Part shown: in pieces, positions 5,990-33,945 of the stretch
Numbering within the stretch: the first letter of the stretch is position 1
Layout: the number at the start of each line of letters is the position of its first letter
IMG/VR virus record: IMGVR_UViG_3300046616_000314
Coordinates: 286,616 to 350,615 of that record
Origin: a virus
DNA: 64,000 nt
Strand: one strand, 5' to 3'
Made by a program: the position numbers and the translations under genes
Notes under the pieces: generated by a model
Seen by the model: the letters and a program-made list of their open reading frames with translations, nothing else
Databases searched by the model: none
What the model was told of the DNA's origin: nothing

Positions 5990-6024
5990 CGCCATATACC
6001 ATATTGGGCTATAAATAGTTCAGT

Positions 6025-6581: not shown

Positions 6582-6589
6582 ATACTGTC

Positions 6590-6919: not shown

Positions 6920-6962
6920 CACCATAAATACACTAATAGCCTAATTCTAGGAGTGTATTTTC

Positions 6963-8162
6963 ATGCGACAGTGGATTAACATAGTCGAACACCGGGAACC
7001 CATCAACGAACTATTTGATGATTCGCCATCGTTGACCGCTATTCCTGACGCTGAACTTCCGCATTCGGGGCTCCCGCAATTACCCAGTGTGCCGACACTT
7101 AAGGCTTATAAATTTAAGGTAGGGTCGGAACGCTATGCGGTCTGGTTCATAAAACATTCCGATGCCGTGGAATGTCTATTTGCTAAATTCGTCCCGGCTC
7201 CGAACGGCACACAAACCATTTCATTTGAGCTAACACCGTCAGCAAGTGCCGTACAGGTGTTCTCCGCTGTCATGGTAGCCATCAACACGTTCTGTTCGAC
7301 GGTTAGACCTGAAACGATTGTATTCCCTGGTTGGAATGCAAGACAGAGCAATTTCTATAAGCGTCTAGCTCGTTATGCCGACAAGACCGGTGTCTTGTCG
7401 AATGCGTATGAACTGTACACGCATGAACTTGACGGCAAAGAAATAACTGCGATCCGAAAGAAAGTTACGCCCAAGGCTTTCGAAGACATCAGCGAAGATG
7501 TCTCGCCTGGGTTTAAGGCATGGTTCGGGGATAGCAAGGTGGTTGACGAACACGGCAACCCTCTAAAAGTTTATCACGGCACGAATCAGCCGCTCACTAA
7601 ATTTTCTAAAGATCGTGGCGGTGCCGCCACTGGTCCTCGCCACGGCGCGGCGCATGGTTTCTTCTTTACAAAATCGCCAGTTGTTGCATCAATGTATGCG
7701 GTTCATGCTGGCACTACGAATATTGCGGGTATGGAAGACCACGAACAAAAATCAGCACAATATCAAAAAGAAATTGCTGCTGCTGAGCGCAAAGGTGATT
7801 GGGATCGCTACGAACAACTCATGAGCGATTACGAAGATCACGAAATCAATGCAACTCGGGAAGACCCAATTCACGGTCAAAACGTAATTCCGGCGTATCT
7901 GTCTTTACAGCATCCTAAAATTTTAAATTATCAAGGTGGAAGTGGTGGTACATTTAGTGTTCATGGCGATTTGGATGTGGTTATTGATCAAGCCAAAGCC
8001 GAAGGCTACGATGGTTTGATTATGCTCAATGTCGATGATACTCCTAGCGATTCCGTCGTTACGGATCACTACGTTGCATTTAGCCCGAAGCAAATCAAAT
8101 CGGTGTTCAACGGAAGCTTCAATCCGAACAGCGATCACATTAGCGAGACTTCACGAAAATAA
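6963..8162 (+). CDS. hypothetical protein; possible H-Y-[EDQ]-class ADP-ribosyltransferase fold (ART-like)
   Basis: KVYHGTNQP...GFFFTKSPVVASMYAV...VVTDHYVAFSPKQIK resembles the HGT / aromatic-Y / [ED]Y-hydrophobic triad of PARP/DT-like ARTs (compare PARP YNEYIVY). The GGAGG RBS is well spaced. Confidence 0.35.
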   Translation: MRQWINIVEHREPINELFDDSPSLTAIPDAELPHSGLPQLPSVPTLKAYKFKVGSERYAVWFIKHSDAVECLFAKFVPAPNGTQTISFELTPSASAVQVFSAVMVAINTFCSTVRPETIVFPGWNARQSNFYKRLARYADKTGVLSNAYELYTHELDGKEITAIRKKVTPKAFEDISEDVSPGFKAWFGDSKVVDEHGNPLKVYHGTNQPLTKFSKDRGGAATGPRHGAAHGFFFTKSPVVASMYAVHAGTTNIAGMEDHEQKSAQYQKEIAAAERKGDWDRYEQLMSDYEDHEINATREDPIHGQNVIPAYLSLQHPKILNYQGGSGGTFSVHGDLDVVIDQAKAEGYDGLIMLNVDDTPSDSVVTDHYVAFSPKQIKSVFNGSFNPNSDHISETSRK

Positions 8163-8222
8163 TTGCACCGCTTTGGTTTTTGTGCGATGATACCTTGTCT
8201 TTTAGATGAGGAAACAATTTCC

Positions 8223-8942
8223 ATGACGACAACCGTGTCTGCCTCGCAGACTGAAACCTACGATGTTGGTCTGCGCGCTTTCATGACCGGCGTCTACAAT
8301 CGCATGTTCGGTGCCATCGCCCTCACCGGCATTCTTGCCTATCTTGCGAGCATCGAGCCCCTGAAGTCGCTGTTCTTCACGCTCAATGACAAGGGTCAAC
8401 TGACCTATACCCTGTTGGGTATCGTCGTCGCCTTCGCACCGCTGGGCATCATCCTGGCTCAAGGCTTCCTGAAGTCCGTGAGCGGCAAGTTCGTTCTCTG
8501 GTCCGTCTCGGCACTGTTCGGGTTGAGCCTGGGTTCGATCTTCCTGAAATATACCGGCGGGTCCATCGCTTCGACGTTCTTCGCCACGGCGGCGGCGTTC
8601 GGCGGTCTGAGCCTGTGGGGTTACACCACCAAGCGCAATCTGAGCGGTTGGGGTAGCTTCCTTCTGGTCGCCCTTATCGGGCTGATCGTGGTGTCGCTGA
8701 TCAACGTGTTCCTGCTGCATTCGAGCGGCTTGGACTTGATCGTGTCGGGTGCCGGGGTTCTGATCTTCGCGGGCTTCATCGCCTACGATACGCAGACGAC
8801 CAAGAACTTCTACTCGGAGTCCCTGTCGTCGTCGGAACTGGGTGACGTGCAAGATTCGGCTGCACTGAACCTCTATCTCGACTTCATCAACCTGTTCCTG
8901 TACCTGCTGCGCTTCATGGGCGTCGGCAAGTCCAGCGACTAA
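8223..8942 (+). CDS. Bax inhibitor-1/YccA family (TMBIM) membrane protein
   Basis: Seven predicted hydrophobic helices. The C-terminus YDTQTT..NFY...AALNLYLDFINLFLYLLRFMG matches the YccA/BI-1 signature (E. coli YccA ...[33 protein letters not shown]). Start chosen at the MTTTVS codon behind a GAGGAAAC RBS. Confidence 0.7.
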   Translation: MTTTVSASQTETYDVGLRAFMTGVYNRMFGAIALTGILAYLASIEPLKSLFFTLNDKGQLTYTLLGIVVAFAPLGIILAQGFLKSVSGKFVLWSVSALFGLSLGSIFLKYTGGSIASTFFATAAAFGGLSLWGYTTKRNLSGWGSFLLVALIGLIVVSLINVFLLHSSGLDLIVSGAGVLIFAGFIAYDTQTTKNFYSESLSSSELGDVQDSAALNLYLDFINLFLYLLRFMGVGKSSD

Positions 8943-12323: not shown

Positions 12324-14252
12324 ATGCGTTATCGTGACATTATCAAGGAAAATGGTGGACTCGTTGTCCCTGGTGTGAACACCACTCCTGACGTTCAGCC
12401 AGGAGAGATCGCGCGCCAAGCCGCCAAGCTTGGTTTCAAAGTTGACGCCAACGGATTGCCGCCCATCTGGACGGGTCACGATGCCTCTACGGGCGCCAAG
12501 GACACCCCTAACAAGGGCGAAGCGTTCTATAAGAAGAATGGTGCCCGCCCCAACAAAAAAGCCCCTAAGCTCAAGAAAAACGTGTCCGAAAGCGTACTCG
12601 TTGAGAGCTTGCGCGGTTGGTTTTGGAATGCAAACACTGGGGAAACTTTAGACATCCCCGGAACCCAAATGATGCACGTTGAGTACATCAAGGGTTATCC
12701 AGAAAATTTTGGCTTGTCGATTGCAGACGTTAAAGACGTAAATCTACGTAACTCGATTGAAGCTGGCAAATTACTACACATGGTATTGGCGATGGGCTGG
12801 ATTCGTTGCGCGAATTCCTTCTCCGGTCACACCGCATTTTTGAACGCAGCTTCGAAGCGTTACGCCAATATGGCAATCAAACATTTTGCTAAGATGTTTA
12901 CCGAGCTAGTGGTTGAGATCACCGAGAACGGTGAAGCCCCTGGTGGAGGCGTTAGCTTCCGATTGAAAGACCCCATGGCGGTGCGTCAATTCCTTCGTAC
13001 GGGTGTAACCGGTGAAGAATGGATTGACGATCAGCTTTCCGCTCTAACCGAAGCTCGCCGGAATCCTGAACAGAATAGAGGCGAACGAAATCAAGGCTTC
13101 GGAGCCGCCCTAAAGAACTATATCGGACCCGATAGCTTCATCAGCTTTACAATGATTGACAAGGTTGGCGCCAACCCGCGCACGCAATTTTCTACGCCCA
13201 TAGGCATCTATACCTATCCGCTTGACGAAGAAACTTGGCAAGACGTGATGGATGACGATATTCCGTTCGCTGGGGATTTGAAATACATCAACATTATCAA
13301 GTCCAGAGCTTCGAAAGTCATGGACAGCGCGAATTACGCACAAGGCGATATGGTCAGCAATGAAATCAAATTGCGCGAATGCTTACTAGACTATTGGATG
13401 GAAGACCCGGATGGCATCTATCAATTCTTGAAGGATGCTCAGACTTCGGCATTCCGAAAGAAGAATTCTCCTTTCATGGCGATGACATGGAATCAAACAC
13501 GCTGGGTAGCCATGGCAATTAGCACGGCTCGTAAGAACAAAACTCTTGACCCGGAAAAACGTTTGACACTCGTTGACGTTGCGAATCATGTAGCTAAAGA
13601 ATATGACGACAACTGGAACAGTAATCCGCAGTTGTGGAATCACGTTCTATCCAATGTTCTCGGATACGATATGATCTTGGATCGAGGCGCGGGTATCATT
13701 CACAGTAATGAACCTAAGCAAGCACTGTTCTTGAAGCTCTCTGCTTTACAGTTGATGGAGCGCAAGATCAATCCAAACTGGAATGAAGATGCAAAGACGG
13801 AAAAGAAAATCACTATGGGTTATTTGCCCTTACTGATCGGAACAGAGCGTCTTCCAATCAATAAGATTTTCTGGGGGATCAATACTGCCATCGCCAATAA
13901 GCGTGCTTATGACAATGATCAGGATATGCATAACGCCTTGGGCGGCAAGTACATAGTAACAATAAAAGACGATTTCAATAGTGATTTCAAAGTCTTTGTA
14001 ACTAATCTTCTAAATCATGTTGATGTCTCTAAGCTGAACGTAGGGCAAGCCAAAAGTTTGAATATTGGAATATATGAAATGTTCAAACATGCTGACGCAA
14101 TCCGATCATTACCTCATGATATGGTTGTCGGTCTATGTGTGATGCTTAAGAAAGCAACTACTATACACCACGGACAACGAATCGCGCTTCCTGAATACAT
14201 TCGTGGTTTCATAACGCCCGAAGAAGTCGAGAATATCAATGCTAATTACTGA
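12324..14252 (+). CDS. large hypothetical protein, paralog A of a tandem pair
   Basis: 642 aa. Residues ~260-470 align with the next ORF: SFTMIDKVGANPRTQFSTPIGIYTYP / IPFAGDLKYINIIKSRAS / WNQTRW / WNHVLSNVLGYDMILDRGAGIIHSNEPKQALFL. Confidence 0.6.
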   Translation: MRYRDIIKENGGLVVPGVNTTPDVQPGEIARQAAKLGFKVDANGLPPIWTGHDASTGAKDTPNKGEAFYKKNGARPNKKAPKLKKNVSESVLVESLRGWFWNANTGETLDIPGTQMMHVEYIKGYPENFGLSIADVKDVNLRNSIEAGKLLHMVLAMGWIRCANSFSGHTAFLNAASKRYANMAIKHFAKMFTELVVEITENGEAPGGGVSFRLKDPMAVRQFLRTGVTGEEWIDDQLSALTEARRNPEQNRGERNQGFGAALKNYIGPDSFISFTMIDKVGANPRTQFSTPIGIYTYPLDEETWQDVMDDDIPFAGDLKYINIIKSRASKVMDSANYAQGDMVSNEIKLRECLLDYWMEDPDGIYQFLKDAQTSAFRKKNSPFMAMTWNQTRWVAMAISTARKNKTLDPEKRLTLVDVANHVAKEYDDNWNSNPQLWNHVLSNVLGYDMILDRGAGIIHSNEPKQALFLKLSALQLMERKINPNWNEDAKTEKKITMGYLPLLIGTERLPINKIFWGINTAIANKRAYDNDQDMHNALGGKYIVTIKDDFNSDFKVFVTNLLNHVDVSKLNVGQAKSLNIGIYEMFKHADAIRSLPHDMVVGLCVMLKKATTIHHGQRIALPEYIRGFITPEEVENINANY

Positions 14253-15441
14253 ATTGTTTGAAGCACGTTCTAACCCAACGCAGAACAAAGACAACCGAGC
14301 TTCGGATGTTTCTGAATATTTGCGCGGTCTAGACTACGAAACTGGCGAACTGTTTATGAGTTTTACTCAAATCGATAAAGTTGGCATGAACCCGCAATCG
14401 ACTTACAACACGCCACTAGGTGTGTATTGCTATCCGATCAATCGCCACACTATCGAAGATTACGACAACAACAGTCTTCCATTTGCGGGCGATGCCAAGT
14501 TCGTGAACATTATCAAGTCACGCGGTAGTCAACTGAATGTTCAGGACTATGGCGATGATGATCTAGCCGACGACTCCAAGCGGTTGACCAGATATCTACT
14601 TAAGATTTTTCCCGAAAATGAAAATGAGATTGATCAAATTCATGCGCTAGCCGTACAGGATGCCAAGAATGGTACTCATGGCAAGAAAACGGCGGCTTCT
14701 TATATCTGGAATTACACTCGCTGGGCAGCTTACTTGCTGGACATCAAAGACCCGAAGGCAATCATTCGTAAGATGTCGGGATTTGATTCTACCACACCAA
14801 GCAAGACAGCCGCGACTTGGAATGCCGTCCTGCGTAAGGTGCTAGGATATGATTCGGTAGTCGATAACGGCTGGGGCATCATTCACGAAAACGAACCGAC
14901 ACAGGCGGTGTTCTTGGATGTTCGTGGTTTCCAGTTAGTATCGCGCCGCGTGAACACCAATTGGTCAGGTCGCCTCCTGAAGAAAATTAATCTGAGTACA
15001 GTTCCGTGGTTGTGGAAGAATAACAATATCGCTTTCCGTTCCATCCTCGCGGCTTTGGAAATTTTTATTACTAAGGCGCCCGTAGTGCTCAATCGCAAAT
15101 ATGAAGTGAACCGAGACAAACTTCGACAGGAAGTTCCAGGGTATTTTGCGGCATTGCGATCAGTGATAAGATACACGCATGTCACTATGCAGGAAGCTAG
15201 TTATATCGCTCATGGTATCATGAGTCATATCCGCAATGGTGGTATCTTGGAACATCTGAACCAAGACGAACGATTGGAACTGTTGGAGTGGTGGCTACCA
15301 TTTTTCCAAAAAGGCTTTTCTACCCAAACCGATTTGGCTAGCAATGAAACGTTCAAGAGAGATTACATGAACGTATTTGTTCACGTCCTAGACGACGCAC
15401 ATTATGCTAAATTTGAGGAATTTGTGGCTAATTATGGATAA
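14239..15441 (+). CDS. hypothetical protein, paralog B of the tandem pair
   Basis: 400 aa with SFTQIDKVGMNPQSTYNTPLGVYCYP / LPFAGDAKFVNIIKSRGS / WNYTRW / WNAVLRKVLGYDSVVDNGWGIIHENEPTQAVFL. Confidence 0.6.
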   Translation: MLITELFEARSNPTQNKDNRASDVSEYLRGLDYETGELFMSFTQIDKVGMNPQSTYNTPLGVYCYPINRHTIEDYDNNSLPFAGDAKFVNIIKSRGSQLNVQDYGDDDLADDSKRLTRYLLKIFPENENEIDQIHALAVQDAKNGTHGKKTAASYIWNYTRWAAYLLDIKDPKAIIRKMSGFDSTTPSKTAATWNAVLRKVLGYDSVVDNGWGIIHENEPTQAVFLDVRGFQLVSRRVNTNWSGRLLKKINLSTVPWLWKNNNIAFRSILAALEIFITKAPVVLNRKYEVNRDKLRQEVPGYFAALRSVIRYTHVTMQEASYIAHGIMSHIRNGGILEHLNQDERLELLEWWLPFFQKGFSTQTDLASNETFKRDYMNVFVHVLDDAHYAKFEEFVANYG

Positions 15442-16705
15442 TACATTTGCAGTAATGTCGGCTGATGAATTTAGAGAATTTATCAACCGCACGCGCGAGA
15501 TCAATTCAGACCTAGCACCGGGGCATGACAATTTCCACACGGATCGAATCAAGTACGTCTATCCTTTGGATAAGAATGAGCATTTGGTTGTGCTCAACGG
15601 TGATCACATTATTGCTATGGCAGGCGTTGAAACCAATCCGTATGACCATGAACAGCTTTGGATTAAGTATGTAAGCGTTGACCCAGAATATCGCGGTCAA
15701 GGTCTAGGGCGTTTCCTTCTAGAAAAGGTTTTCCAATACGCGGTCGCCCATGGTCAGAAGGTCAAGAATAGCAGCTTCACCGAACTAGGCGCCGAACGTC
15801 TCAAGCATCTGCACCCGGAATTCGAGAAGAAATATCCACAAGCTGCATTCGCCCGAAACGAACAGGGTAAGTACGTAAACTCTCGCGGTCAGGTCATGGA
15901 AGAATGCAACTTCACGCTTGAGCGCGAAGCGGCGAGCCATCTACCTACGGAATGGCTGAACGAAGCATCGACCGAAACCCCGGATGCCCCAACGGTCGAT
16001 ACGACCAAGGATGGTCAGACGATCACCTTTGAGCGTTTCAAGGATATCGAAGGCAATAAGAATCGCGGCTGGCGCGTAGACAAAATCGAAGCCAAGATCG
16101 GTAACGAGTTAGTGGGCTACATTAAGATTTCGTATATTCCGAAGACTCGCTTCAGACAATATTACAAGAGTGTCTTCAATTTTGCTCATCAGATGCTAGG
16201 TCAGACTGTCTTTCCATTCGGAAAAGAAACTGCCTCACTAGAAAGCTTGAATAACAAAGAATTGTTTGACGCACTCTACCGTGTATACAGAGAAAAGAGT
16301 TACAGTTTAGCCGAGCAACTAGACCCTAAGATGCCACGCAAGCAAGTTATGCTTTTGCTTAAGAAGCAAGAGTTGGCGTGGATGAACGATGAAACTAACG
16401 AACCGTATGGTGAGAAATTCAAGAAGTTCTATCGCTACCACGTTGATAAGCCGATGGTCGATGCGATTCGCGTCGAAGATGGTAGCGGATCATTGGGTAC
16501 CGCCGGTAAGCCGTCACATTTGCGTAGAGGAATCGGGCGCAAGCTCTATGCCGCCGCGTCAGAATGGATGCAAGAACGCGGTCTACGACTACACGCATCG
16601 GGTTGCCAGACGAACGATGCCAAGGCGTGCTGGACAAAGTTTGATTCTGAAGGCGGCGTTAAGAGCGATGCCGATGGACGCCGTTATATCGATTTCATGA
16701 AATAA
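15434..16705 (+). CDS. double GNAT-like N-acetyltransferase domain protein
   Basis: N-terminal IKYVSVDPEYRGQGLGRFLLE (GNAT motif A, Q/RxxGxG/A). A second C-terminal copy: LRRGIGRKLYAAASEWMQERG. Start taken at ATG 15434 (8 nt overlap); the alternative is 15404. Confidence 0.5.
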   Translation: MDNTFAVMSADEFREFINRTREINSDLAPGHDNFHTDRIKYVYPLDKNEHLVVLNGDHIIAMAGVETNPYDHEQLWIKYVSVDPEYRGQGLGRFLLEKVFQYAVAHGQKVKNSSFTELGAERLKHLHPEFEKKYPQAAFARNEQGKYVNSRGQVMEECNFTLEREAASHLPTEWLNEASTETPDAPTVDTTKDGQTITFERFKDIEGNKNRGWRVDKIEAKIGNELVGYIKISYIPKTRFRQYYKSVFNFAHQMLGQTVFPFGKETASLESLNNKELFDALYRVYREKSYSLAEQLDPKMPRKQVMLLLKKQELAWMNDETNEPYGEKFKKFYRYHVDKPMVDAIRVEDGSGSLGTAGKPSHLRRGIGRKLYAAASEWMQERGLRLHASGCQTNDAKACWTKFDSEGGVKSDADGRRYIDFMK

Positions 16706-16888: not shown

Positions 16889-17167
16889 TTACTCAGTCTT
16901 GATGAACTTGCTCTGGTGTTGCGCCATGTCCTCTGGGGACTCGTAACCGAGCAATTGCCACTCGGGAATCGGGAGAACCAGAGGCAGGACGAAGTAGCGC
17001 ATATGCGCGTTGTCCACCGTTTGTTGAGCCTTGGCTTTCCACGCGGCGCGAGCTTGAGCCGGATCGCTGAAGACACCAACCACGTCAAGGTTGTCTGGGT
17101 CCTTGAAGATCGTGCCTTGAACGTGAACCAGTTCACCGCCGATTACCAGTAGAAGTTTCTGTTCCAT
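16889..17167 (-). CDS. small conserved protein, DUF4170-like (alphaproteobacterial family, recalled from memory)
   Basis: LLLVIGGELVHVQGTIFKDPDNLDVVGVFSDPAQARAAWKAKAQQTVDNAHMRYFV resembles small alphaproteobacterial proteins of the form ...LVFGG.L.D....F.DL..L..VGV...Y..A..AWRAKAQ.TVD.A.M.Y. Confidence 0.35.
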   Translation of the reverse strand: MEQKLLLVIGGELVHVQGTIFKDPDNLDVVGVFSDPAQARAAWKAKAQQTVDNAHMRYFVLPLVLPIPEWQLLGYESPEDMAQHQSKFIKTE

Positions 17168-17174
17168 CTTACCC

Positions 17175-17528
17175 TCACAAATTGATTTTTAGCATCATCA
17201 TGTCGGCGTCAAACATTTCCTTGTCGCCGTTCCATGCGAAACAATCGCAGCTTTTGTCAGTGATATTATGCTGACTCGAAAAGCTGTAAAATTCAGCAAC
17301 CCATTCATCCGCTTCAATTATGAAATGGGTAGATGAATTGGTCTTGAGTTGCCCGTAGTCTTCCGCCGGTTGGAAAAAGATTTTTACCGTGAAGTTCTTG
17401 CCAGAAAAATCCACGTGCCGCATGGCGCCGCATTTTTCCTTACCATTCCCGAAGAAGAAAGAATCCAACTCGGGTAGAACGAAGCGCATCAAGAGACGCT
17501 TATATTCCGGCTCAATGATGCGCTTCAT
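17175..17528 (-). CDS. hypothetical protein (last gene of the NAD operon)
   Basis: 117 aa ORF lying 6 nt downstream of nadE on the same strand. Confidence 0.45.
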   Translation of the reverse strand: MKRIIEPEYKRLLMRFVLPELDSFFFGNGKEKCGAMRHVDFSGKNFTVKIFFQPAEDYGQLKTNSSTHFIIEADEWVAEFYSFSSQHNITDKSCDCFAWNGDKEMFDADMMMLKINL

Positions 17529-17533
17529 CGTTC

Positions 17534-19327
17534 CTAGTTCCGCCAGCGGTTCACGATGGGATAGCGACGATCCCGACCAAAAATCTTGCTTCCGATCTTA
17601 ACACCGGGAGCCGCTTGGCGACGCTTGTATTCAGCGTTATCCACAAGTTTGCGGATTTTCTGAACAACATCCAATCGAACTTCAAGTTCGACAACGATGT
17701 CAGCGACCGACAGTTCTTCTTCGATCATCGCCTTGAGGATCGAATCGAGAACCGGATAGGGCGGCAGGCTGTCTTCGTCCTTTTGATCGGGACGCAGTTC
17801 AGCCGAAGGCGGCTTCACGATGATCTCTTCGGGAACCACTTGAGTTGCCCGACCCAAGAAGCCAAATTCCGTCAGATATTTTTGCGGAATGGCATTGCGC
17901 CAGCGGCACAAGTCCCAAACCGTCGTCTTGTAGCAATCCTTGATCGGATTGAAGCCACCGCTCATGTCGCCGTAGAGGGTCGAGTAACCCACGCTGACTT
18001 CCGACTTGTTGCCGGTGGTCAGGAGGATATGACCCTCTTGGTTGGAGATCGCCATCAGGATAGTACCACGGGCACGCGCCTGGATATTTTCATCCGCAAC
18101 GCCTTCAAGCTCACGAAGACCAGCAGTCATACCCTTTTCGTACTGGGCACTGCTATAGGCAACGCGCAGCGAATTCACGACGTTCTCAATCGGGATGGTT
18201 CGCATTTGCGCACCAAGGCGATCAGCCCCGGCTTCTGCATCCGATAGCGAGTGATCCGAAGAGAATGCCGAAGGCAGGCGAACCAAGTGAACGTTCTCGG
18301 GACCGATGGCGTCACAGGCGACAGCCGCGACCAGACCGGAGTCCACCCCGCCGCTGTAGCCGAGAACCACTGACTTGAAGCCTTGCTTTAGAAGGTAGTC
18401 ACGGGTACCGAGCACGACAGCTTGATAGATTTCCTGTTCGTGTGGTGTAACGATCTTCGGATAAAGATGCAAGGGAGCCCGATTTTCCGGCGGCTTGATC
18501 CAGTGCGAGAACGAACCGTCATCGCGCACCGAGCCCACAATCGTAGTCGGAACGCCCGCGTCATTATATTCGAAATGGCGCGAACGGGTTTGCGGGTGGA
18601 ATTCGAAGGCGAACAAACCTTCTTTGAAATATGGCGCCGACTGATAGCCCTTGGCGTCGTAGTAGAACGATCCGCCGTCGAACACCAGTTCGTCTTGACC
18701 ACCGATCATGTTGACGTACAGGAACGGCAAGCCGGTTTCCTTGATGCGGTTGGCGATCACTTGGTGACGAGTGACATTCTTACCGGCTTCGAACGGTGAA
18801 CCGTTGATGCTCAGAAGGAACGTGGCGTCATTGTCCGACAGCGAACGGCTCACGCTGGGGAACCAGCAGTCTTCGCAGATCATCAGACCGATGCGTTGAC
18901 CCCGGAATTCGATGGGAAACGGTTCGGCGGTATTTGCTTCGAACACGCGCTTTTCATCGAACACACCGTAGTTCGGTAGTTCGGTCTTGTGGATCAGATC
19001 GACCTTCTTGAGAACCGGATCGATCAAGTACGCACTGTTGCGCGGTTTGACGTTGCCCTTCGTCGGCGTGCCGAAGATGATCCCGGCGTCCATGAAGCCG
19101 CCGCCCATGACAGCATCAATGATGCGTTGGTTGGCGCGTTCAACCGCGTCCATGAACGAATGGCGCGACACCAAGTCTTCGATGGGATAGCCGGTCACGG
19201 CGCACTCTGGGAAGACGACCAGATCAAAGCCCGATTTTGCGGCGTTCTCGTATTGGGCAATGATTTGATCCGCGTTGCCGACGATATCACCGACGACCGG
19301 GTTAAATTGAATGACAGCAATTCTCAT
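17534..19327 (-). CDS. nadE: glutamine-dependent NAD+ synthetase (nitrilase domain + NAD synthetase PP-loop domain)
   Basis: N-terminal CN-hydrolase signature (MRIAVIQFNPVVGD...LVVFPECAVTGYPIEDL...GLMICEDCWFP). C-terminal PP-loop (VVLGYSGGVDSGLVAAV). 597 aa is typical for Gln-dependent NadE; GAGGAA RBS. Confidence 0.85.
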   Translation of the reverse strand: MRIAVIQFNPVVGDIVGNADQIIAQYENAAKSGFDLVVFPECAVTGYPIEDLVSRHSFMDAVERANQRIIDAVMGGGFMDAGIIFGTPTKGNVKPRNSAYLIDPVLKKVDLIHKTELPNYGVFDEKRVFEANTAEPFPIEFRGQRIGLMICEDCWFPSVSRSLSDNDATFLLSINGSPFEAGKNVTRHQVIANRIKETGLPFLYVNMIGGQDELVFDGGSFYYDAKGYQSAPYFKEGLFAFEFHPQTRSRHFEYNDAGVPTTIVGSVRDDGSFSHWIKPPENRAPLHLYPKIVTPHEQEIYQAVVLGTRDYLLKQGFKSVVLGYSGGVDSGLVAAVACDAIGPENVHLVRLPSAFSSDHSLSDAEAGADRLGAQMRTIPIENVVNSLRVAYSSAQYEKGMTAGLRELEGVADENIQARARGTILMAISNQEGHILLTTGNKSEVSVGYSTLYGDMSGGFNPIKDCYKTTVWDLCRWRNAIPQKYLTEFGFLGRATQVVPEEIIVKPPSAELRPDQKDEDSLPPYPVLDSILKAMIEEELSVADIVVELEVRLDVVQKIRKLVDNAEYKRRQAAPGVKIGSKIFGRDRRYPIVNRWRN

Positions 19328-19329
19328 TT

Positions 19330-19671
19330 TTATTCCTCAATATCAACGGGAGTGATATGCCAAACCGAACGGCTCTGGGGTTTCACTCCGGTACGCATGG
19401 CGTCCATCACTTGACTGATATTACTGATTCCGCCAGTAATTTCAACAAAGCCAACGCCGACGATGTTTAGGGCAAGCGCATCCGCACCCGCCGTGATGTT
19501 TTGAACCTTGTCATTCTTAAGAATGATTTCAGTACAATCGACCAAGTTCTTGATGTTCTTGATCGCTTTCACGTGTCCAATTTTCAGAGCCACCTTGGCT
19601 GCATCATCTTCATTGTGGGCGAAGATGCTGCAACCAGAGTTGGCAGAATTGGTGATGCGGTAGATACGCAT
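19330..19671 (-). CDS. hypothetical protein within the NAD operon
   Basis: 113 aa ORF packed tightly between pncA and nadE. Confidence 0.45.
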   Translation of the reverse strand: MRIYRITNSANSGCSIFAHNEDDAAKVALKIGHVKAIKNIKNLVDCTEIILKNDKVQNITAGADALALNIVGVGFVEITGGISNISQVMDAMRTGVKPQSRSVWHITPVDIEE

Positions 19672-20316
19672 TTAGTCCTCGTGCGGATAGGCGTGAGCGA
19701 AGGTCAGGTTTTCGTTACCCGGAAACTCTTCCAAGATAACTTGCTGCATGTCGCGCACGATGCCCTTGGTCAGGTCAGCCATGACGATCACCTTGAAGCC
19801 ACGCTTCAGGAAACCTTCAATCGCCCAAAAGACGCAGAAGTCGGCAGCAAAACCGGTGATGATGATCGTATCGACGCCTTGCGCCTTCAGATCGGCGAAG
19901 AATTCATCGCGATCATAGTACGAGTTGGTCAGCGCGAGACGCAGATCGCGCAGATACAACTTGTCTTCTTCCCACATATTGAAGACGCCCTTTTCCAGGG
20001 CATAGACCGGGATGGCGAAATTGATCAACGCCGGATTGATGACGTTCTCCCAACCGGGTGTGCCCTTTTCACAGTGCAGATTGAAGCCTGGGGCGCCCAC
20101 TTCCGGGTTGCCGAGATTTTCCGGCGAGCCGATGAAGGTTTCTTCGGTGTGCGTATCGAAGGTGTTCAGAACACCCGCGATTTCGTCAGGGTTCAAGCTG
20201 GCGTTCCAACGCAGCAGCTTGGAAACCACGGCTTCAGCACCTTCCACCGGCAGGGCAAAGCCCTTGAAGATGAAATCGGCTTGGGTATCAACGTTGACCA
20301 CAAATTTGTTTTTCAT
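19672..20316 (-). CDS. pncA: nicotinamidase / isochorismatase-family cysteine hydrolase (PncA-like)
   Basis: VNVDTQADF (the VDxQNDF motif), ...IITGFAADFCVFWAIEGFLKRGFKVIV (catalytic Cys in the GxxxxxCV context), ~214 aa. Confidence 0.65.
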   Translation of the reverse strand: MKNKFVVNVDTQADFIFKGFALPVEGAEAVVSKLLRWNASLNPDEIAGVLNTFDTHTEETFIGSPENLGNPEVGAPGFNLHCEKGTPGWENVINPALINFAIPVYALEKGVFNMWEEDKLYLRDLRLALTNSYYDRDEFFADLKAQGVDTIIITGFAADFCVFWAIEGFLKRGFKVIVMADLTKGIVRDMQQVILEEFPGNENLTFAHAYPHED

Positions 20317-20328
20317 AATATTTTTTCC

Positions 20329-21663
20329 TTAAACCAGAACCGGAGCACCATCGAGACCTTCGATCCCGAACAGTGCGCGGTAGCGGTCCACTTCAGAGGC
20401 GGGACCAGTTGCCTTGTTATAGTTGTCCGACATCTTCACGGCAGGACGCCCATCGGCATCCTTGATCTTGGCAACAACCGAGATCGAACCCATGTAGTCG
20501 TCAGCTTCGCCAGGGACGCAGCCATAGAAATCGTTCGACAGGTTGGTACCCCAACCAAAGCCCATGCGGACCTTGCCACGGAAGTAGGCTTCGATTTCCA
20601 AGATGTCTTCACCGTGGGTGTCGTAGCCATCGATCTTGACATCAAGACCGTCGCTGAAAATAATCAGCTTTTCTTGCGGGTTCTCGCCGTGCGTCTTCCA
20701 ATATTTGATCAGTTCGTCACCGCCAGGAATCGGCTTCTTGGAGTCGGGGCGAGCACCCGTCCACTGAGAAACCCATTGCGGGGCATTCTCAAGGAACTGG
20801 GTCGTGCCGAACGTGTCGGGCAGGAAGACCAGCAGTCCGCCGCGATATTGCGCCGCCCACTTCAGGAGCACCTTGTATTGTGCATCCTTCAGTTCGGCAT
20901 CGTCTTGCGCCAGAGCCGCCAGGGTCATCGGTAGTTCATGGGCGTTCGTGCCCTTGGCTTCCAAACCATGCTTCATGGCGAGATATGCGTTCGACGTACC
21001 GGTGAAGCGGTCGCCAAGAACTTCCTTCGCCAGCAGCATGGCGTATTCTTGCCAAAGGAAGCTATGGCGACGGCGAGTGGCGAAGTCCGTCAGGTTCAGG
21101 TCTTCGACAGTCGCCAGCTTTTCGAGCTTGGCGTACAGCTTCGCCTTGGCGCGGGCATACATGATGTCGATTTGGGTAGCCGTCAGCTTTGACATCCGCG
21201 AACGAGCAAGAAGCTCATTGATGATGGTCAGTGCGTAGATTTCCCAAAGCGTCACTTCGGTCCAAGTGCCGTGGAATTCGAGGATGTATTGACCGGTTTC
21301 TTCGTCAACTTCCAATGAATATTCCGGCAGTTGGAACGTCTTCAGATATTCGATATAGCCCGGCTTGAACAGTCGGTCTTGACCGTAGAAGGTGTTTCCC
21401 TTGAGCCAGTGAATCTCGTTCGGCTGGAAACGCAGCGTGCGAGCATGGTCGAGTTGCGCGCGGAGTTGCTTGATATTGATGTTCCGCGCGAGCTTCACTC
21501 GCTTGGTACGATTGGTGACGGCGAACGTCACCTTCGTATTGAAGAAATCTTCACGGATAAGCTGTTGCATCAGCAGCTTATAAAAATCGATGTCCAGCAG
21601 CGACCGAACGATGGGGTCGATGTCGTAAAGAAGGGCGTCTTTGGCGCGTTTTGCAAAATCCAT
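20329..21663 (-). CDS. pncB: nicotinate phosphoribosyltransferase
   Basis: Aligns by eye to E. coli PncB: DIDFYKLLMQQ/DTDAYKLHMQQ, LWEIYALTIINE/LWEVPLLAVISE, FATRRRHS/FGTRRRFS, GTSN, GTNAHE/GTQAHE, KMSDNYNKATG/KLSDSPGKTIC. Confidence 0.8.
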   Translation of the reverse strand: MDFAKRAKDALLYDIDPIVRSLLDIDFYKLLMQQLIREDFFNTKVTFAVTNRTKRVKLARNINIKQLRAQLDHARTLRFQPNEIHWLKGNTFYGQDRLFKPGYIEYLKTFQLPEYSLEVDEETGQYILEFHGTWTEVTLWEIYALTIINELLARSRMSKLTATQIDIMYARAKAKLYAKLEKLATVEDLNLTDFATRRRHSFLWQEYAMLLAKEVLGDRFTGTSNAYLAMKHGLEAKGTNAHELPMTLAALAQDDAELKDAQYKVLLKWAAQYRGGLLVFLPDTFGTTQFLENAPQWVSQWTGARPDSKKPIPGGDELIKYWKTHGENPQEKLIIFSDGLDVKIDGYDTHGEDILEIEAYFRGKVRMGFGWGTNLSNDFYGCVPGEADDYMGSISVVAKIKDADGRPAVKMSDNYNKATGPASEVDRYRALFGIEGLDGAPVLV

Positions 21664-21668
21664 AATAA

Positions 21669-22760
21669 TTAAACTTTCTTAATCAGAGCTTCGGAGTCGC
21701 TGATCATCTTCCAATGATCTTCGAAATATTCGTAACGCGGAATGGTATCCGGGTCCTTCCAAACGGCGCGCTTGGCGTCCGACGCCGCGCGAACCTTCGG
21801 ATACGCCAGGGCTTCGCGAACCTTGGTGATATCGGTCACGCCCGGCGGAATCTTCGGAGTCAGATTGATGAAGGTGGTGTGGCTGACGGTGCGCTTGCGA
21901 GTCGAGCGATTGGGATCATCGTAGGTTTTTTCGCCGATGATGCTGTTGCGTAGAGTTTCGCGAGCGACCTTCAGACGGGTCTCTTCGTACAGTTCCTTGA
22001 TCGCAGCGTCCGCAGCCGTTTGATTTTCGCAGTGACCACCGGGGACCGCCCACAGACCCTTACCGGGGAAGCCGCCGCGCTGGACCAAAAGAACCTTGCG
22101 CGCTTGGCGAACGACCGAATCCGCCGTGTAGAAAATCGGCGGATAGGGAGCACTGTCCCATTGCCCCAGATAGTTTTGCATGAACACCTTCTCGGCAAGA
22201 AGGCTTTCAAGATATTCGGGGGTTTGACGGAATTCTTGAAGGAAGGCGATCACGCCTGGGGCGAGATATTCAGTCGCTTCGCCGTTCAGGAATTCCGAGA
22301 CGAGGCGTTGATCTTCGACAATATATTTGTCGCGCGCATAGGTCGCGTTGATCCCACGGAAGTTGGGGACTTCGACGCTTTCCCAATCGGGGAACTGCGA
22401 CAGATAATAGCCGGTGGGTTGATCTTTCTTGTGACCGACAAGGGCGGTGGGATCATCTTGAACGATATCCCGCGTGGCATCATGCACGGCGGCTTGCCAT
22501 TGCGAAATGTTGCCATAGTCCATGACGTTGACGAACTTGACCCGACGCAGTTGTTCGGGAGGCAGCATACGCCGCCACATTTCTTCACGTTCAAATTCTC
22601 GGAAGGGAACATGGTCCCATCGCCGTGCGGCGAAAGAAGAACCGTTGACGACAACTAGTTCTTCGCATTCTTGTAGCCCGGCTGCAACTACGGCGCCGTG
22701 AGCTAGTGTTACTGGTTGACCGCGAACAACGGTCACACCGTGACGATAACGATACTTCAA
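21669..22760 (-). CDS. nadM: bifunctional NMN/NaMN adenylyltransferase - Nudix hydrolase (NadM-Nudix type)
   Basis: N-terminal nucleotidyltransferase region (VVRGQPVTLAHGAVV, GQP..xHxGH-like). C-terminal Nudix box GGHCENQTAADAAIKELYEETRL (Gx5Ex7[RK]ELxEEx). The architecture matches NadM-Nudix and phage NatV. Confidence 0.65.
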   Translation of the reverse strand: MKYRYRHGVTVVRGQPVTLAHGAVVAAGLQECEELVVVNGSSFAARRWDHVPFREFEREEMWRRMLPPEQLRRVKFVNVMDYGNISQWQAAVHDATRDIVQDDPTALVGHKKDQPTGYYLSQFPDWESVEVPNFRGINATYARDKYIVEDQRLVSEFLNGEATEYLAPGVIAFLQEFRQTPEYLESLLAEKVFMQNYLGQWDSAPYPPIFYTADSVVRQARKVLLVQRGGFPGKGLWAVPGGHCENQTAADAAIKELYEETRLKVARETLRNSIIGEKTYDDPNRSTRKRTVSHTTFINLTPKIPPGVTDITKVREALAYPKVRAASDAKRAVWKDPDTIPRYEYFEDHWKMISDSEALIKKV

Positions 22761-22813
22761 GGTAAATCCTACCGAGCTATGGTAGCGCGTGGACTATTCC
22801 TGCGCCATGTTTT

Positions 22814-22821
22814 TATTTATA
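22814..22821 (-). promoter_or_regulatory. T4 late-promoter-like TATAAATA box upstream of the NAD operon
   Basis: Plus strand reads tatttata, so the minus strand reads TATAAATA, 54 nt upstream of the nadM start. Confidence 0.3.
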
Positions 22822-22862
22822 CCAAACTTTTTTCGTAAACGCAATTAAAAAATGCGGGCAAG

Positions 22863-22895
22863 AAAAAGCCCGGCGATTGCTCGCCGGGCTCTTGT
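22863..22895 (-). terminator. rho-independent terminator downstream of the mucR-like gene
   Basis: GCCCGGCGAttgctCGCCGGGC hairpin with a T-tract on the minus strand. Confidence 0.55.
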
Positions 22896-22920: not shown

Positions 22921-23475
22921 TTAGGCTTCGGTCGAAGCCAGATCAGCAGCGGCGTTCTTGGCTTCCGATTCCACGACGGTTTCCTTGGCGGGCTTGCGAG
23001 CCTTGGTCGCCTTCGGAGCCTTCGCAGCCGGGGCAGCAGCCTTCGCCTTGCGACCGCCTTGACCCAGACCCAGAGCCTTCGCCATCGCCGAACGGGCTTC
23101 CGAGTAGGCGGGCGCCGTGGTCGGGTAGTCGTTCGGGAGACCGAACTTCGCCTTGTATTCGGCGACGGTCATGCCGTTGGTGGTCAGGTGACGCTTCAGG
23201 GTCTTGTAGGGCTTGCCGTCGATGAAGCTGATCAGCGCGTCGTTGGTCACGGACTTGCGGATTTGAGCCGGGGTCGCCTTGGCTTGCTCGTCAGCGACGA
23301 CAGCGACCGGCGAAGCGGCGTTGGTCAGACCGGTCAGAGCCGCCGAAATGGCGCCGATGACGCCGGGGATGTCGGTCGCCGACACGGCGTTGTGCGAGAA
23401 ATAGGCACCAGCAACAGCGGCGGTCAGTTCGACGGTCGAAGTCGCGGACGACACGGGTTGAGTTTGATCAGTCAT
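22921..23475 (-). CDS. mucR: Ros/MucR-family transcriptional regulator homolog, zinc-finger-less variant with Lys/Ala-rich C-terminal tail
   Basis: VELTAAVAGAYFSHNAVSATDIPGVIGAISAALTGL and IRKSVTNDALISFIDGKPYKTLKRHLTTNGMTVAEYKAKFGLPNDYPTTAPAYSEARSAMAKALGLGQ align to Agrobacterium Ros ([104 protein letters not shown]). The Cys2His2 ligands are replaced by I/S and T/N. The tail reads KAKAAAPAAKAPKATKARKPAKE. Confidence 0.8.
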   Translation of the reverse strand: MTDQTQPVSSATSTVELTAAVAGAYFSHNAVSATDIPGVIGAISAALTGLTNAASPVAVVADEQAKATPAQIRKSVTNDALISFIDGKPYKTLKRHLTTNGMTVAEYKAKFGLPNDYPTTAPAYSEARSAMAKALGLGQGGRKAKAAAPAAKAPKATKARKPAKETVVESEAKNAAADLASTEA

Positions 23476-23798
23476 ATTCGCTCTCTGTCTGTTTCACAAA
23501 AGGATGCCGCAACCATCAGCGGCGTTGGAGAGCCTTGAAATTAGTTCGCTGCTTTCAAGGTGTCAACAGCACTCATAGAGATTTTTTGATTTTATGCTGT
23601 TTTGGCAAGCCTAGACACTGATTTTAGACCAACGGATACATGAGCTAGATGCAAAAGGTTTAATGAAAAAATCAATAAAATCATATAGTTATGGTGGAGG
23701 TTCCGTAGAGGCTCACCGCTTTGGGGGCTTCTGAAACTTTTTTTGCTTTTTTGCTTGGAACCAAAGCTTTTCGAAAGATATTGCGCGTAAAAGGGACC

Positions 23799-24299
23799 AT
23801 GAGTTATGATTATCAGATGACAACGAAACTTGATCTCGGCTTCAAACACGGTGGATTGGCTCGCCAGCTATCCAATCTCTACGCTTACCCTTTCGTGCTC
23901 GATGGCACGCAATGCGGCTCTATTGAGGGCTTTCTTCAGGGTGTGAAATTCCAGGGCTTGGAAGAACAAGCCTTGATTGCGTCTTTGCAGGGCTACGAAG
24001 CTTATAAGACCGGGCAACTAGGGAACGACTGGAAAGAAACTCAAACCCTGTGGTGGCAGGGTAAGGCTTTTCCTCGCCTTAGTAGAGAGTACCATACTCT
24101 CTTAGAGCGGGCGTACGATGCGTGCTTCGATCAGAACCCGGCTTTCGTACAAGCATTGATCGACAGCGGCATTGATGTCCTGACACATTATATGGGGCAT
24201 CACGATCCGCATAATTCGGTGCTCACCGAATGGGAATACATCTATCTTATGTATCGAGCGCGTACGAAGGCGTTCCAAGGGATCATGGCAGAAACTTGA
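23799..24299 (+). CDS. NADAR (YbiA-like, DUF1768) domain protein, predicted ADP-ribose/NAD-derivative N-glycosidase
   Basis: GGLARQLSNLYAYPFVLDGTQCGSIEGFLQGVKF ... GNDWKETQ ... NPAFVQALIDSGIDVL matches the NADAR core (LSNFYP.PF..DG..Y.SVEHYFQA.KF ... DWE ... NP.L...LL.TG). AAGGGA RBS 4 nt upstream. Confidence 0.65.
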   Translation: MSYDYQMTTKLDLGFKHGGLARQLSNLYAYPFVLDGTQCGSIEGFLQGVKFQGLEEQALIASLQGYEAYKTGQLGNDWKETQTLWWQGKAFPRLSREYHTLLERAYDACFDQNPAFVQALIDSGIDVLTHYMGHHDPHNSVLTEWEYIYLMYRARTKAFQGIMAET

Positions 24300-25856: not shown

Positions 25857-26375
25857 ATGAACATCATCTATAAGCACGGCGACCTAATGGCTTCGCCGGA
25901 AACATTCATCGTTCAGGGCTGTAACGCCCAAGGTGTAATGGGTTCGGGTGTCGCGAAGCTATTGCGTGACGCAGATGAAACCATTTACTCCGAATATCGA
26001 CAAGTTTACGAGGACCAAGGCAATTTCCTGAAGCAAGGGCAATGCGTTTGGGTTTTCTCGAAAGTGTTGAACAAGTTCGTTATCAACGCGATCACACAAC
26101 GATTTTATGGTCGCGAACCCGGCGTGGTCTACGCGGATTACGATGCCATTGAACAAGCGTTCCGTGACATCAATGATCATTTCTATAAGCATCGCAACGA
26201 GAATGCGACTATCCCTCAAGTGGCAATGCCTTTGATCGGAGCCGGGCTTGCTCAAGGTAAGTGGTCGATCATCGCTCAAACCATCGAAGAAAGCGCGGAG
26301 CATTTTCAGCCCGTCGTCTATCTGATGGACGGGATCATTCCCGATGGTGTTCAAGGGGAAGTCATCAATGCGTAA
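25857..26375 (+). CDS. macro domain protein (ADP-ribose binding / ADP-ribosyl hydrolase, Appr-1''-pase family)
   Basis: IVQGCNAQGVMGSGVAKLL (the N-A-x-N...GGGV-like motif) and QVAMPLIGAGLAQGKW (the PxIGxGxxG motif); 172 aa is typical for a single macro domain. Confidence 0.7.
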   Translation: MNIIYKHGDLMASPETFIVQGCNAQGVMGSGVAKLLRDADETIYSEYRQVYEDQGNFLKQGQCVWVFSKVLNKFVINAITQRFYGREPGVVYADYDAIEQAFRDINDHFYKHRNENATIPQVAMPLIGAGLAQGKWSIIAQTIEESAEHFQPVVYLMDGIIPDGVQGEVINA

Positions 26376-28590: not shown

Positions 28591-28791
28591 GTTGGTAAGG
28601 TGTCGGGTCTGGCTAGGGTCGTGAGTGGTCTCTATGGTGCGGACACAGAGACCACTCACGAATGACCAACAACGCAGGGTCGGGTCTGGGTGTGCCAGTC
28701 ACGCTTGCACCTTATAAACCATAGTTCTCTGTGTCAAATTGAATCGGACATAATGTCGCACTTTTTTATTGCATCTGTGAGTATGCACTGA

Positions 28792-28799
28792 TATAAATA
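28792..28799 (+). promoter_or_regulatory. T4 late-promoter consensus TATAAATA immediately upstream of the tRNA
   Basis: Exact TATAAATA lies 9 nt before tRNA position +1. Confidence 0.35.
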
Positions 28800-28808
28800 A
28801 TAACTGTT

Positions 28809-28883
28809 GCGGGTGTAGTTCAGTGGTAGAACATCAGTTTTCCAAACTGAGTGTCGCTGGTTCGATCCCAGTCACCCGCTCCA
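28809..28883 (+). tRNA. tRNA-Gly (anticodon UCC)
   Basis: Cloverleaf folded by hand: acceptor stem GCGGGTG/CACCCGC, D-arm GTTCAGTGGTAGAAC, anticodon stem TCAGT/ACTGA with loop TTTCCAA (anticodon TCC), T-arm GCTGG-TTCGATC-CCAGT, discriminator U, encoded CCA. Confidence 0.8.
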
Positions 28884-32572: not shown

Positions 32573-32938
32573 GTGTATACTTCCGAAATTACTATGCGGA
32601 GATTTGTTATGCCCGAATTTCGAGCCAGCGATATCAGGACCACGAATTATTCTCACGCTTTCCAAGCGTCGATGTTCGCTGACAAAACCGAATGGACGAA
32701 AGCCAAGAGTGGCAAGGATTTCGCTCGAAAGTTTTTCGAAAAGAATCCCGATCTTTTGGAAGACCCTCGGACGTGGCAAGCCGGTCTCGGCGTCCAATTC
32801 GAAGAAGGTAAGTGGTCCTATTACCACCCTGGCGAATTCGGCTATATGATGCCCGACACGATTCGGGCTACGTTCTCGCCAGAAGTTTTGGCGGCGATGC
32901 AAAAGCTTCAGGACTTCGGTCAACCGCATGGTCTCTAA
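32573..32938 (+). CDS. hypothetical protein
   Basis: 121 aa ORF. Confidence 0.45.
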   Translation: MYTSEITMRRFVMPEFRASDIRTTNYSHAFQASMFADKTEWTKAKSGKDFARKFFEKNPDLLEDPRTWQAGLGVQFEEGKWSYYHPGEFGYMMPDTIRATFSPEVLAAMQKLQDFGQPHGL

Positions 32939-33944: not shown

Positions 33945-33945
33945 G

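Follow-up and report, generated by a model that had tools for sequence, protein, structure and literature searches.

The window analysed here, a 64,000-nt stretch of the IMG/VR virus record IMGVR_UViG_3300046616_000314 (positions 286,616 to 350,615), carries on its minus strand a compact operon of seven genes, among them members of four enzyme families that together would lead from nicotinamide to nicotinamide adenine dinucleotide (NAD+): a PncA-type nicotinamidase, the nicotinate phosphoribosyltransferase PncB, an adenylyltransferase-Nudix fusion of the NadM type and a two-domain, glutamine-dependent NadE. We consider it likely that this is a functional NAD+ salvage operon of a jumbo phage, assembled largely from genes of an alphaproteobacterial host; the enzymatic activities, the order of the steps and the physiological purpose are what we infer from the sequence. 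The genome is that of an undescribed T4-like jumbo phage of the Atu_ph07/Phosso lineage, about 561 kb in size, and its host was probably alphaproteobacterial.

The seven co-directional open reading frames (ORFs) span positions 16889–22760 in the ORF listing (Table 1), as given in a preliminary description of this DNA, and all seven products agree with those called on a public contig of independent assembly that carries the same proteins. The tight co-directional arrangement proposed in that description was also found, although the gaps between the genes are not 2–12 nt but 0–12 nt (5, 12, 0, 2, 5, and 7 nt in operon order). Each gene has a purine-rich Shine-Dalgarno-like run ahead of its start codon.

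Assignment of PncB was based on Pfam (NAPRTase_N and NAPRTase; 95.1 and 114.5 bits), on NCBIfam NF003704 (424 bits; cut-off 379) and on its best structure match, the Agrobacterium tumefaciens nicotinate phosphoribosyltransferase 1ybe (E 2.7e-145), while its score of 255 with the TIGR01514 equivalog was just short of the cut-off of 269.55. The PHROG family of nicotinamide phosphoribosyltransferases (NAMPT) was matched only at E 1.5e-16, and membership in the PncB rather than the NAMPT subfamily points to a preference for nicotinate over nicotinamide. The NadE protein matched both Pfam CN_hydrolase (PF00795) and NAD_synthase (PF02540), scored 634.6 bits with NF010588 (cut-off 479) and E 4e-184 with PHROG 36784, and had the two-domain enzymes 3n05, 5kha, and 4f4h as best structure matches; the glutaminase triad E41/K114/C151 and the PP-loop SGGVDS (residues 325–330) are present.

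The PncA protein matched Pfam Isochorismatase (PF00857) with 42.2 bits over residues 6–196 (threshold 27), and its best structure matches were the nicotinamidases/pyrazinamidases 1ilw, 2wt9, and 3pl1. The catalytic triad was assigned to D10 (VDTQADF), K109 (LEKG), and C161 (DFCV); D10 and C161 align with the enzymes of Pyrococcus horikoshii and Mycobacterium tuberculosis, and K109, located in a poorly aligned stretch, is the least certain of the three. The metal ligands D54-T-H56 and H81 (LHCEKGTPG) correspond in the alignments to DWH and HCVQNTPG of 1ilw and also match 3pl1, and the HCxxG(T/S)xG motif, which marks nicotinamidases off from other isochorismatase-like hydrolases, is present. Judging from these motifs, the protein is a divergent nicotinamidase that would act on nicotinamide.

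The first gene of the operon encodes a fusion whose two-domain architecture, homologous to Synechocystis slr0787 and Francisella NadM, is present at full length. NCBIfam NF003786 aligned with residues 2–355 and gave the best equivalog score (251.8 bits; cut-off 397), the Pfam NUDIX domain was detected, and PDB 2qjo (slr0787) matched residues 1–335 with E 1e-49. PDB 2qjt matched with E 4e-36, and the alignment with Francisella NadM also runs from end to end. Identities to the counterparts in phages RcXuper, DSS3P8, and Lacusarx were 35–38%; close relatives were not found in IMG/VR and JGI metagenomes. The four enzyme families named in the preliminary description (isochorismatase-family nicotinamidase, nicotinate phosphoribosyltransferase of 444 aa, adenylyltransferase-Nudix fusion of the NadM type, and full-length NAD+ synthetase with CN-hydrolase and PP-loop domains) were thus all recovered.

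Together, these enzymes plausibly make up a complete Preiss-Handler-type route. PncA would convert nicotinamide to nicotinate and NH3, and PncB would join nicotinate with phosphoribosyl pyrophosphate (PRPP) to nicotinate mononucleotide (NaMN); the NadM domain is predicted to adenylylate NaMN to nicotinate adenine dinucleotide (NaAD), which the two-domain NadE would amidate to NAD+ with glutamine as donor. The Nudix domain would cleave ADP-ribose to AMP and ribose-5-phosphate, from which the host can remake PRPP. By returning the products of NAD+ consumption to synthesis, the operon would keep up or enlarge the NAD+ pool available in the infected cell. Of the four-enzyme route proposed in the preliminary description, the enzyme families stood, while adenylylation of NaMN depends on a divergent NadM motif. 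Archaea and Acinetobacter have a NadM that is bifunctional, and its cooperation with a two-domain NadE has a precedent in Acinetobacter, where the same enzyme families (PncA-PncB, bifunctional NadM rather than NadD, and two-domain NadE) serve cellular housekeeping from dispersed genes instead of a viral operon (PMC3376133).

Several observations weigh against this reading. The fusion protein scored below every NadM-Nudix equivalog cut-off, and its NadM signature is VRGQPVTLAH instead of the GRFQPFHxGH of slr0787 and the phage homologues, with the substitutions G to V, F to G, F to V, H to T, and G to A; the Q, the P, and the final H of this first motif are kept, and the second motif, NATYAR (NATxxR), is intact. 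The Nudix box reads G-x5-Q-x7-K-E-L-Y-E-E-T-R-L where the consensus is Gx5Ex7REUxEExGU, so that the ExxEE core is kept but E is replaced by Q and R by K, and one residue is deleted relative to the homologues. Because of the divergent motif and the scores below the equivalog cut-offs, the adenylyltransferase activity of NadM, or its acceptance of NaMN, could be reduced or lost. The bacterial NadM-Nudix enzymes of Synechocystis and Francisella prefer nicotinamide mononucleotide (NMN). For PncA, the score with NCBIfam NF008623 was only 30.6 bits (cut-off 174) and restricted to residues 141–187. In addition, a deamidated route costs more ATP than NAMPT combined with an NMN adenylyltransferase (NMNAT), and NadV, NadR/PnuC, or NadD may be encoded outside the visible 64 of about 561 kb and change the routing.

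An alternative is an order of steps like that of Francisella, in which NadE amidates NaMN to NMN and an NMN-specific NadM makes NAD+ without NaAD as intermediate. Enzymes of the NadM family use NMN efficiently, the closest phage NadM-Nudix proteins are paired with NAMPT and hence act on NMN, and in Francisella NadM is partnered by a NadE homologue that turned into an NMN synthetase (PMC3376133). The NadE of the window, on the other hand, has two domains and exceeds the cut-off of the NAD+ synthase equivalog (634.6 vs. 479 bits). The Francisella NMN synthetase described by Sorci and co-workers in 2009 is reportedly a single-domain NadE. With the two-domain type being the one that works with bifunctional NadM in Acinetobacter (PMC3376133), we regard the NMN order as very unlikely. 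It is also quite unlikely, in our view, that the phage encodes only part of the route, with a NadM domain that is inactive or repurposed, a protein that serves mainly as ADP-ribose pyrophosphatase, and host NadD as the adenylylating enzyme. That the 10-residue signature differs at five positions from slr0787 and the phage homologues would be explained in this way, as would NadM equivalog scores that are all below the cut-off; conservation of the NATxxR motif and of the full-length alignment argues for an active domain, and the clusters of related phages retain NMNAT as a gene of its own, implying selection on this step. Active NMNATs also include enzymes whose (H/T)xGH motif takes the T-x-x-H form.

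The possibility that the region is bacterial DNA, i.e., host chromosome, prophage cargo, or an assembly chimera rather than part of a lytic phage genome, would be in line with the alphaproteobacterial character of the metabolic genes, the MucR gene, and the DUF4170 gene, and with a GC content above that of the flanks. However, the same 64 kb contain a gp20-type portal gene (53419–55197; PHROG 213, E 1e-101), a gene for a tail-lysin or tape-measure-like protein, a tRNA-Gly gene, a gp30.3 homologue, and an RNA ligase with a polynucleotide kinase/phosphatase (PNKP), which agrees with the phage origin stated in the preliminary description. The portal protein shares 50–51% identity with its counterparts in Sinorhizobium phage Phosso (469 kb) and Agrobacterium phage Atu_ph07 (490 kb), both cultured phages with homologous clusters of NAD genes, and phage-specific ORFans are interleaved in the operon. 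Exact copies of the operon's proteins were found only on one 561,116-bp JGI contig and on one independently assembled 40-kb Logan contig, and none of 50,697 phage records contained DNA near-identical to the window. Phage genes, two assemblies, and homologous phage clusters effectively refute a bacterial or chimeric origin, whose probability we consider close to negligible.

Comparison with related phages indicated that the NAD cluster is far from a chance arrangement, as the same enzyme set recurs in clustered form. In Phosso, the order is NadE(NH3-type)-x-PncB-four small ORFs-Nudix-NMNAT-hydrolase(PncA-like)-x-deoxyribosyltransferase; NadE, PncB, the Nudix hydrolase, NMNAT, and the hydrolase, which is a PncA homologue, are already annotated in one cluster in GenBank. 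The cluster NadE-PncB-Nudix-NMNAT-PncA was found in at least seven further jumbo-phage-like contigs (L004, L005, L009, L031, L032, L034, and L036; L005 and L030 are the same contig and were counted once), with PncA not detected in the cluster of L036. Among these, L005 is a 480-kb IMG/VR viral contig with a two-domain NadE, and L032 measures 435 kb. Because the set is clustered in Phosso as well as in these seven contigs, selection appears to act on the whole pathway. NadE adjoins PncB in 11 distinct phage-like contigs, at least seven of which have the full set clustered, and Atu_ph07 carries the enzyme set dispersed. Overall, PncB was present in 13 of the 50,697 phage records, and most of those giving a genome size exceed 400 kb. 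Two records among the phages (CAKLQH02 and CAKLQF02, 'Acinetobacter phage MD-2021a') carry nadE, pncB, and ydjB with bacterial-style names and show 29–40% identity to the window; they look like misfiled bacterial contigs that inflate the counts of phage PncB and NadE. Conversely, a contig of a Hypericibacter metagenome-assembled genome (NZ_JBOHKS010000276.1, about 4177–7296; L017) has a two-domain NadE gene (42% identity to the window) that directly precedes the one for PncB (52%) and may be a phage contig, since this adjacency is typical of jumbo-phage clusters.

The clusters of Atu_ph07- and Phosso-like phages belong to the same lineage as the window (portal identity about 50%), cover the same four functions and have homologous PncB (51–58% identity between the window and phage PncBs) and PncA (38–48% to Phosso, Atu_ph07, and IMG/VR viral contigs); NadE is homologous in the 480-kb contig (54%) and in Atu_ph07 (46%). 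They differ in gene order, which is rearranged in the window, in having separate Nudix and NMNAT genes where the window has a fused NadM-Nudix of another lineage (28% identity over 61 aa), in a nucleoside deoxyribosyltransferase gene that the window lacks, and in a NadE that is mostly of the single-domain, NH3-type instead of two-domain. Two lineage-specific small ORFs are inserted in the window.

Complete gene sets of this kind are not new to phages, and the premise of novelty in the preliminary description is outdated: besides the annotation of Phosso in GenBank, complete salvage or Preiss-Handler pathways were reported for 174 jumbo phages (preprint April 2024, Microbiome December 2024), with pncB-nadD-nadE clusters named (e.g., Kuafu_71) and counter-defence discussed (PMC11662467). 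Like the window, these are jumbo phages with a clustered, complete deamidated route, which was proposed to meet phage NAD+ needs and to serve in counter-defence; they differ in coming from the gut, in having predicted Bacteroidota hosts, and in using NadD in a cluster that starts from nicotinate without pncA, whereas the window has a NadM-Nudix fusion, PncA, and alphaproteobacterial genes (PMC11662467). Both cases are bioinformatic. Such gene sets in jumbo phages are already known, and the window holds a rearranged version; of specific interest in it are the replacement by a NadM-Nudix fusion, the apparent capture of host genes, and the recurring DUF4170.

Analysis of the closest bacterial sequences indicated where the genes may have come from. 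The PncB of the window was 57–62% identical to PncB of Sphingomonadales and Caulobacter, a similarity that equals or exceeds that to the phage copies, and PncA was 52% identical to a sphingomonad pncA fragment cut by a contig end. In these bacteria, pncB follows nrtR and pncA is divergent; this pncA-nrtR-pncB locus is the one closest to PncB and PncA of the window, and the two genes are neighbours there as well. Its nrtR encodes a Nudix-winged-helix-turn-helix regulator, whereas the window has the enzymatic NadM-Nudix in the equivalent position and NadE added. GC content at third codon positions (GC3) was 0.60–0.70 in NadM, PncB, PncA, NadE, and DUF4170, compared to 0.42–0.56 in phage core genes; orf113 and orf117 have the lowest overall GC of the operon, like the phage backbone, with intermediate GC3. 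A rough neighbour-joining tree without support values, on which we do not rely, also groups PncB with sphingomonads and not with other phages. Given the raised GC3 and the similarity of PncB and PncA to sphingomonad genes flanking nrtR, capture from a host is suggested, and PncA, PncB, NadE, and DUF4170 look host-derived. The closest relatives of the NadM-Nudix protein (35–38% identity) occur in phages of other alphaproteobacteria, there followed by NAMPT in the arrangement of NAD+ reconstitution pathway 2 (NARP2). The simplest reading is that the operon is a mosaic of host-derived salvage genes and a phage-type NadM-Nudix gene.

A candidate promoter was located upstream of the operon, with the octamer TATAAATA at 22814–22821 on the minus strand and a leader of about 53–54 nt to the TTG start codon of NadM. 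The octamer occurs three times in the 64 kb (1.09 expected; 3 copies reached in 11 of 100 shuffles), and all three copies are intergenic, aimed at downstream genes, and have a TTG 17–18 nt upstream. One precedes tRNA-Gly(TCC) (28809–28883, plus strand), where a T-run, TTGCAT, 17 nt, and TATAAATAATAAC were found at 28769–28799 and the motif ends 10 nt before the tRNA; the other, TTGACG, 18 nt, and TATAAATA at 5986–6017, is upstream of the ADP-ribosyltransferase gene. The sites at the operon and at tRNA-Gly have in common a T-run, TTGCRT, 17 nt, and TATAAATAAWAAC, a composite motif that suggests a phage-specific class of strong sigma-70-like promoters. No copy of TATAAATA was found upstream of portal or tail genes within the window. 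T4 late promoters are without a −35 element. The octamer behind the T4 late-promoter-like sequence of the preliminary description is thus present, but the late-promoter reading was rejected in view of the −35-like TTG at all copies, the tRNA target, and the lack of copies before structural genes. Because the TTG lies 17–18 nt upstream at all three copies, one of them before a tRNA gene, the element looks like a sigma-70-type rather than a T4 late promoter.

From this sigma-70-like promoter the operon is probably transcribed as one unit, with both co-transcription and the timing of expression being predictions from sequence. The preceding gene ends in a hairpin with a 10-bp GC-rich stem (AGCCCGGCGA/TCGCCGGGCT), the loop GCAA, and a following TTTTTCT, which, being intrinsic-terminator-like, would insulate the operon from read-through; a terminator scan at this site returned only an overlapping weaker hairpin (22872–22855). 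Searches for riboswitches or other known RNAs in and around the operon gave nothing near any gathering score, and the 5' leader folds no better than shuffled sequences (z = −0.5).

Table 1. Coordinates of the operon, its upstream elements and neighbouring genes in the 64,000-nt window (E, E-value).
Feature	Position	Strand	Remarks
NadM-Nudix fusion	21669-22760	−	363 aa; TTG start
PncB, nicotinate phosphoribosyltransferase	20329-21663	−	444 aa
PncA-type nicotinamidase	19672-20316	−	214 aa
orf113, small unknown	19330-19671	−	113 aa; start abuts PncA stop (TAAATG)
NadE, two-domain glutamine-dependent NAD+ synthetase	17534-19327	−	597 aa
orf117, small unknown ORFan	17175-17528	−	117 aa
DUF4170 protein	16889-17167	−	92 aa; 30-residue C-terminal extension
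Promoter-like element	22814-22844	−	T-run, TTGCGT, 17 nt, TATAAATA; putative promoter
Intrinsic-terminator-like hairpin	22860-22890	−	End of upstream Ros/MucR gene; read directly from sequence
Ros/MucR-family regulator	22921-23475	−	E 9e-37; highest GC of the region (0.64), GC3 0.76; own terminator
NADAR/AdfN homologue (T4 gp30.3)	23721-24299	+	Pfam Phage_30_3, E 2.6e-39
Macro-domain protein	25857-26375	+	Pfam Macro, E 3.4e-07; 3 kb from operon
ART-PolyVal ADP-ribosyltransferase protein	6963-8162	+	E 1.5e-18; about 9 kb from operon; would consume NAD+

Among the three small ORFs of the operon, which the preliminary description had regarded as possible accessory factors, one was correctly described as DUF4170-like (Pfam PF13773, 74.8 bits, above the gathering score). 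The accessory-factor reading was not supported. For orf117 (GC 0.44, like the phage backbone), no homologue was found among 5.8 billion proteins, the sole match being itself, and neither Pfam, NCBIfam, nor PHROG families were matched. The orf113 product likewise had no Pfam, NCBIfam, or PHROG match; it belongs to a small phage protein family, with eleven distantly related homologues, each about 100 aa long. The context of the one homologue examined (L018-L020) is phage-like, with genes for a glutathionylspermidine-synthase-like protein, an HD_4 protein, and an M24 peptidase and no NAD genes nearby. The AlphaFold2 (AF2) model of the orf113 product had a predicted local distance difference test score (pLDDT) of 93.5 and no significant match to solved folds.

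Measured across full alignments, the DUF4170 protein was 53–68% identical to chromosomal alphaproteobacterial proteins, the best local match reaching 74%. In bacteria (two homologues, on three distinct contigs), an inositol-monophosphatase-family gene is located directly upstream, and kdtA and lpxK are found downstream of one of the two homologues, a context unrelated to NAD. Matches of the DUF4170 fold were limited to an uncharacterised Caulobacter protein and a weak one to ClpS, and no functional data on DUF4170 were found in the literature. The domain does recur in three phage NAD clusters, with divergent copies inside the Phosso cluster and just after PncB in L007; in the other phage NAD clusters examined it is absent. 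We take this recurrence as a lead, not as a function.

Upstream of the operon, the MucR gene was probably captured recently from an alphaproteobacterial host, as it has the highest GC content of the region. About 250 nt beyond it lies the divergent gene for a homologue of T4 gp30.3, which has been renamed AdfN and is a NADAR ADP-ribosylglycohydrolase neutralising DarTG1 (PMC11257639). The nearby macro-domain protein is possibly an ADP-ribose-binding or -hydrolysing enzyme, and together the two suggest a local concentration of genes related to NAD and ADP-ribose. Further away, an RNA ligase with a weak HNH match and a PNKP-type polynucleotide kinase/phosphatase are encoded in tandem (32928–34923, plus strand), a pair of the tRNA-repair kind that counters anticodon nucleases; in phage RcXuper (L025), the NadM-NAMPT genes have the same two genes next to them. 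Other plus-strand genes include one for a Bax1-inhibitor-family membrane protein (8163–8942; Pfam Bax1-I, E 1e-49), an unusual phage cargo, and one for a 433-aa protein with an N-terminal GNAT acetyltransferase domain (15404–16705) that converges with the end of the NAD operon. Two adjacent paralogues of 642 and 400 aa, likewise on the plus strand (12324–14252 and 14239–15441; 33% identity over 311 aa, E 5e-46) had no Pfam or PHROG match.

The systems closest in function are the phage-encoded pathways for restoring NAD+. NARP2, as found in Vibrio phage KVP40 (NAMPT with a NadM/NatV-type Nmnat), contains the same type of adenylyltransferase-Nudix fusion, and in the NARP2-like pairs of RcXuper and Lacusarx the fusion is directly upstream of the phosphoribosyltransferase, as in the window. 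Input (nicotinamide, PRPP, and ATP) and output (NAD+) are also shared; NARP2, however, is an experimentally proven two-step amidated route via NMN, whereas in the window PncA and PncB replace NAMPT, NadE is needed, and the route is a predicted one. A tblastn search of the 64-kb window with the RcXuper NAMPT as single query gave no match. NARP1 (Adps and Namat) and NARP3 (PnuC and NadR) likewise restore NAD+ with phage-encoded proteins but use unrelated enzymes, NARP1 ligating ADP-ribose pyrophosphate and NARP3 importing and phosphorylating nicotinamide riboside. These three are the routes described, and the statement in the preliminary description that the deamidated route has not been characterised as a phage anti-defence module still stands with regard to experiments in the searchable literature.

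It is conceivable that the operon is dedicated to counter-defence and forms a fourth NARP-like route by which NAD+ depleted by SIR2, TIR, SEFIR, or DSR NADases would be rebuilt, ADP-ribose cleared, and abortive infection escaped, although on balance this is not the outcome we would expect. With NARP1, NARP2, and NARP3 it has been demonstrated that Thoeris, DSR, and Sir2-HerA are overcome by phage genes for NAD+ synthesis, and the fusion is of the NARP2 Nmnat type and in the corresponding position. PncA would use one product of the NADases as its substrate and the Nudix domain the other, the AdfN homologue and the macro-domain gene are within 4 kb, and a sigma-70-like promoter would allow early expression. 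NARP2 raised NAD+ in Bacillus subtilis even in cells without a defence system, on the other hand, so that such boosting need not be specific to defence; the phage has an NAD+ consumer of its own in the ART-PolyVal ADP-ribosyltransferase; and the rarity of PncB in phage records and its occurrence mostly in genomes above 400 kb also fit metabolic autonomy of giant phages. Removal of nicotinamide could even relieve product inhibition of Sir2-type NADases. In the literature, no experiment was found for any phage Preiss-Handler set, nor a test of phage PncA, PncB, or NadE or of the deamidated route as counter-defence. Counter-defence is plausible and supply of the phage's own NAD+-consuming enzymes is equally plausible, and the sequence cannot separate the two. 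A more elaborate scenario, in which a fourth, deamidating route against SIR2-, TIR-, and DSR-type NADases, which might be termed NARP4, was built from a NARP2-like cassette by swapping NAMPT for host PncB, PncA, and NadE, with the Nudix domain recycling ADP-ribose and DUF4170 as accessory, appears doubtful.

In the conflict between bacteria and phages, NAD+ is a central point of contest. Of the phage routes that rebuild it, three have been proven from 2024 onwards, and none of the three proceeds via nicotinic acid, the standard salvage route of many bacteria. Because gene sets of this kind in jumbo phages have already been published, the advance is incremental either way. The seven-gene operon is nevertheless compact enough to be cloned as a unit for testing the deamidated route against NADase defences, and its apparent combination of a NARP2-type adenylyltransferase with captured host genes would illustrate how a pathway can be rebuilt from local parts. 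If the operon works, phages could be engineered with it as a transplantable module, for use against hosts in which NAMPT substrates are missing or NARP1–3 are inhibited. If it does not rescue phages from NADase defences, this would support the view that NAD+ synthesis in giant phages serves mainly metabolic autonomy.

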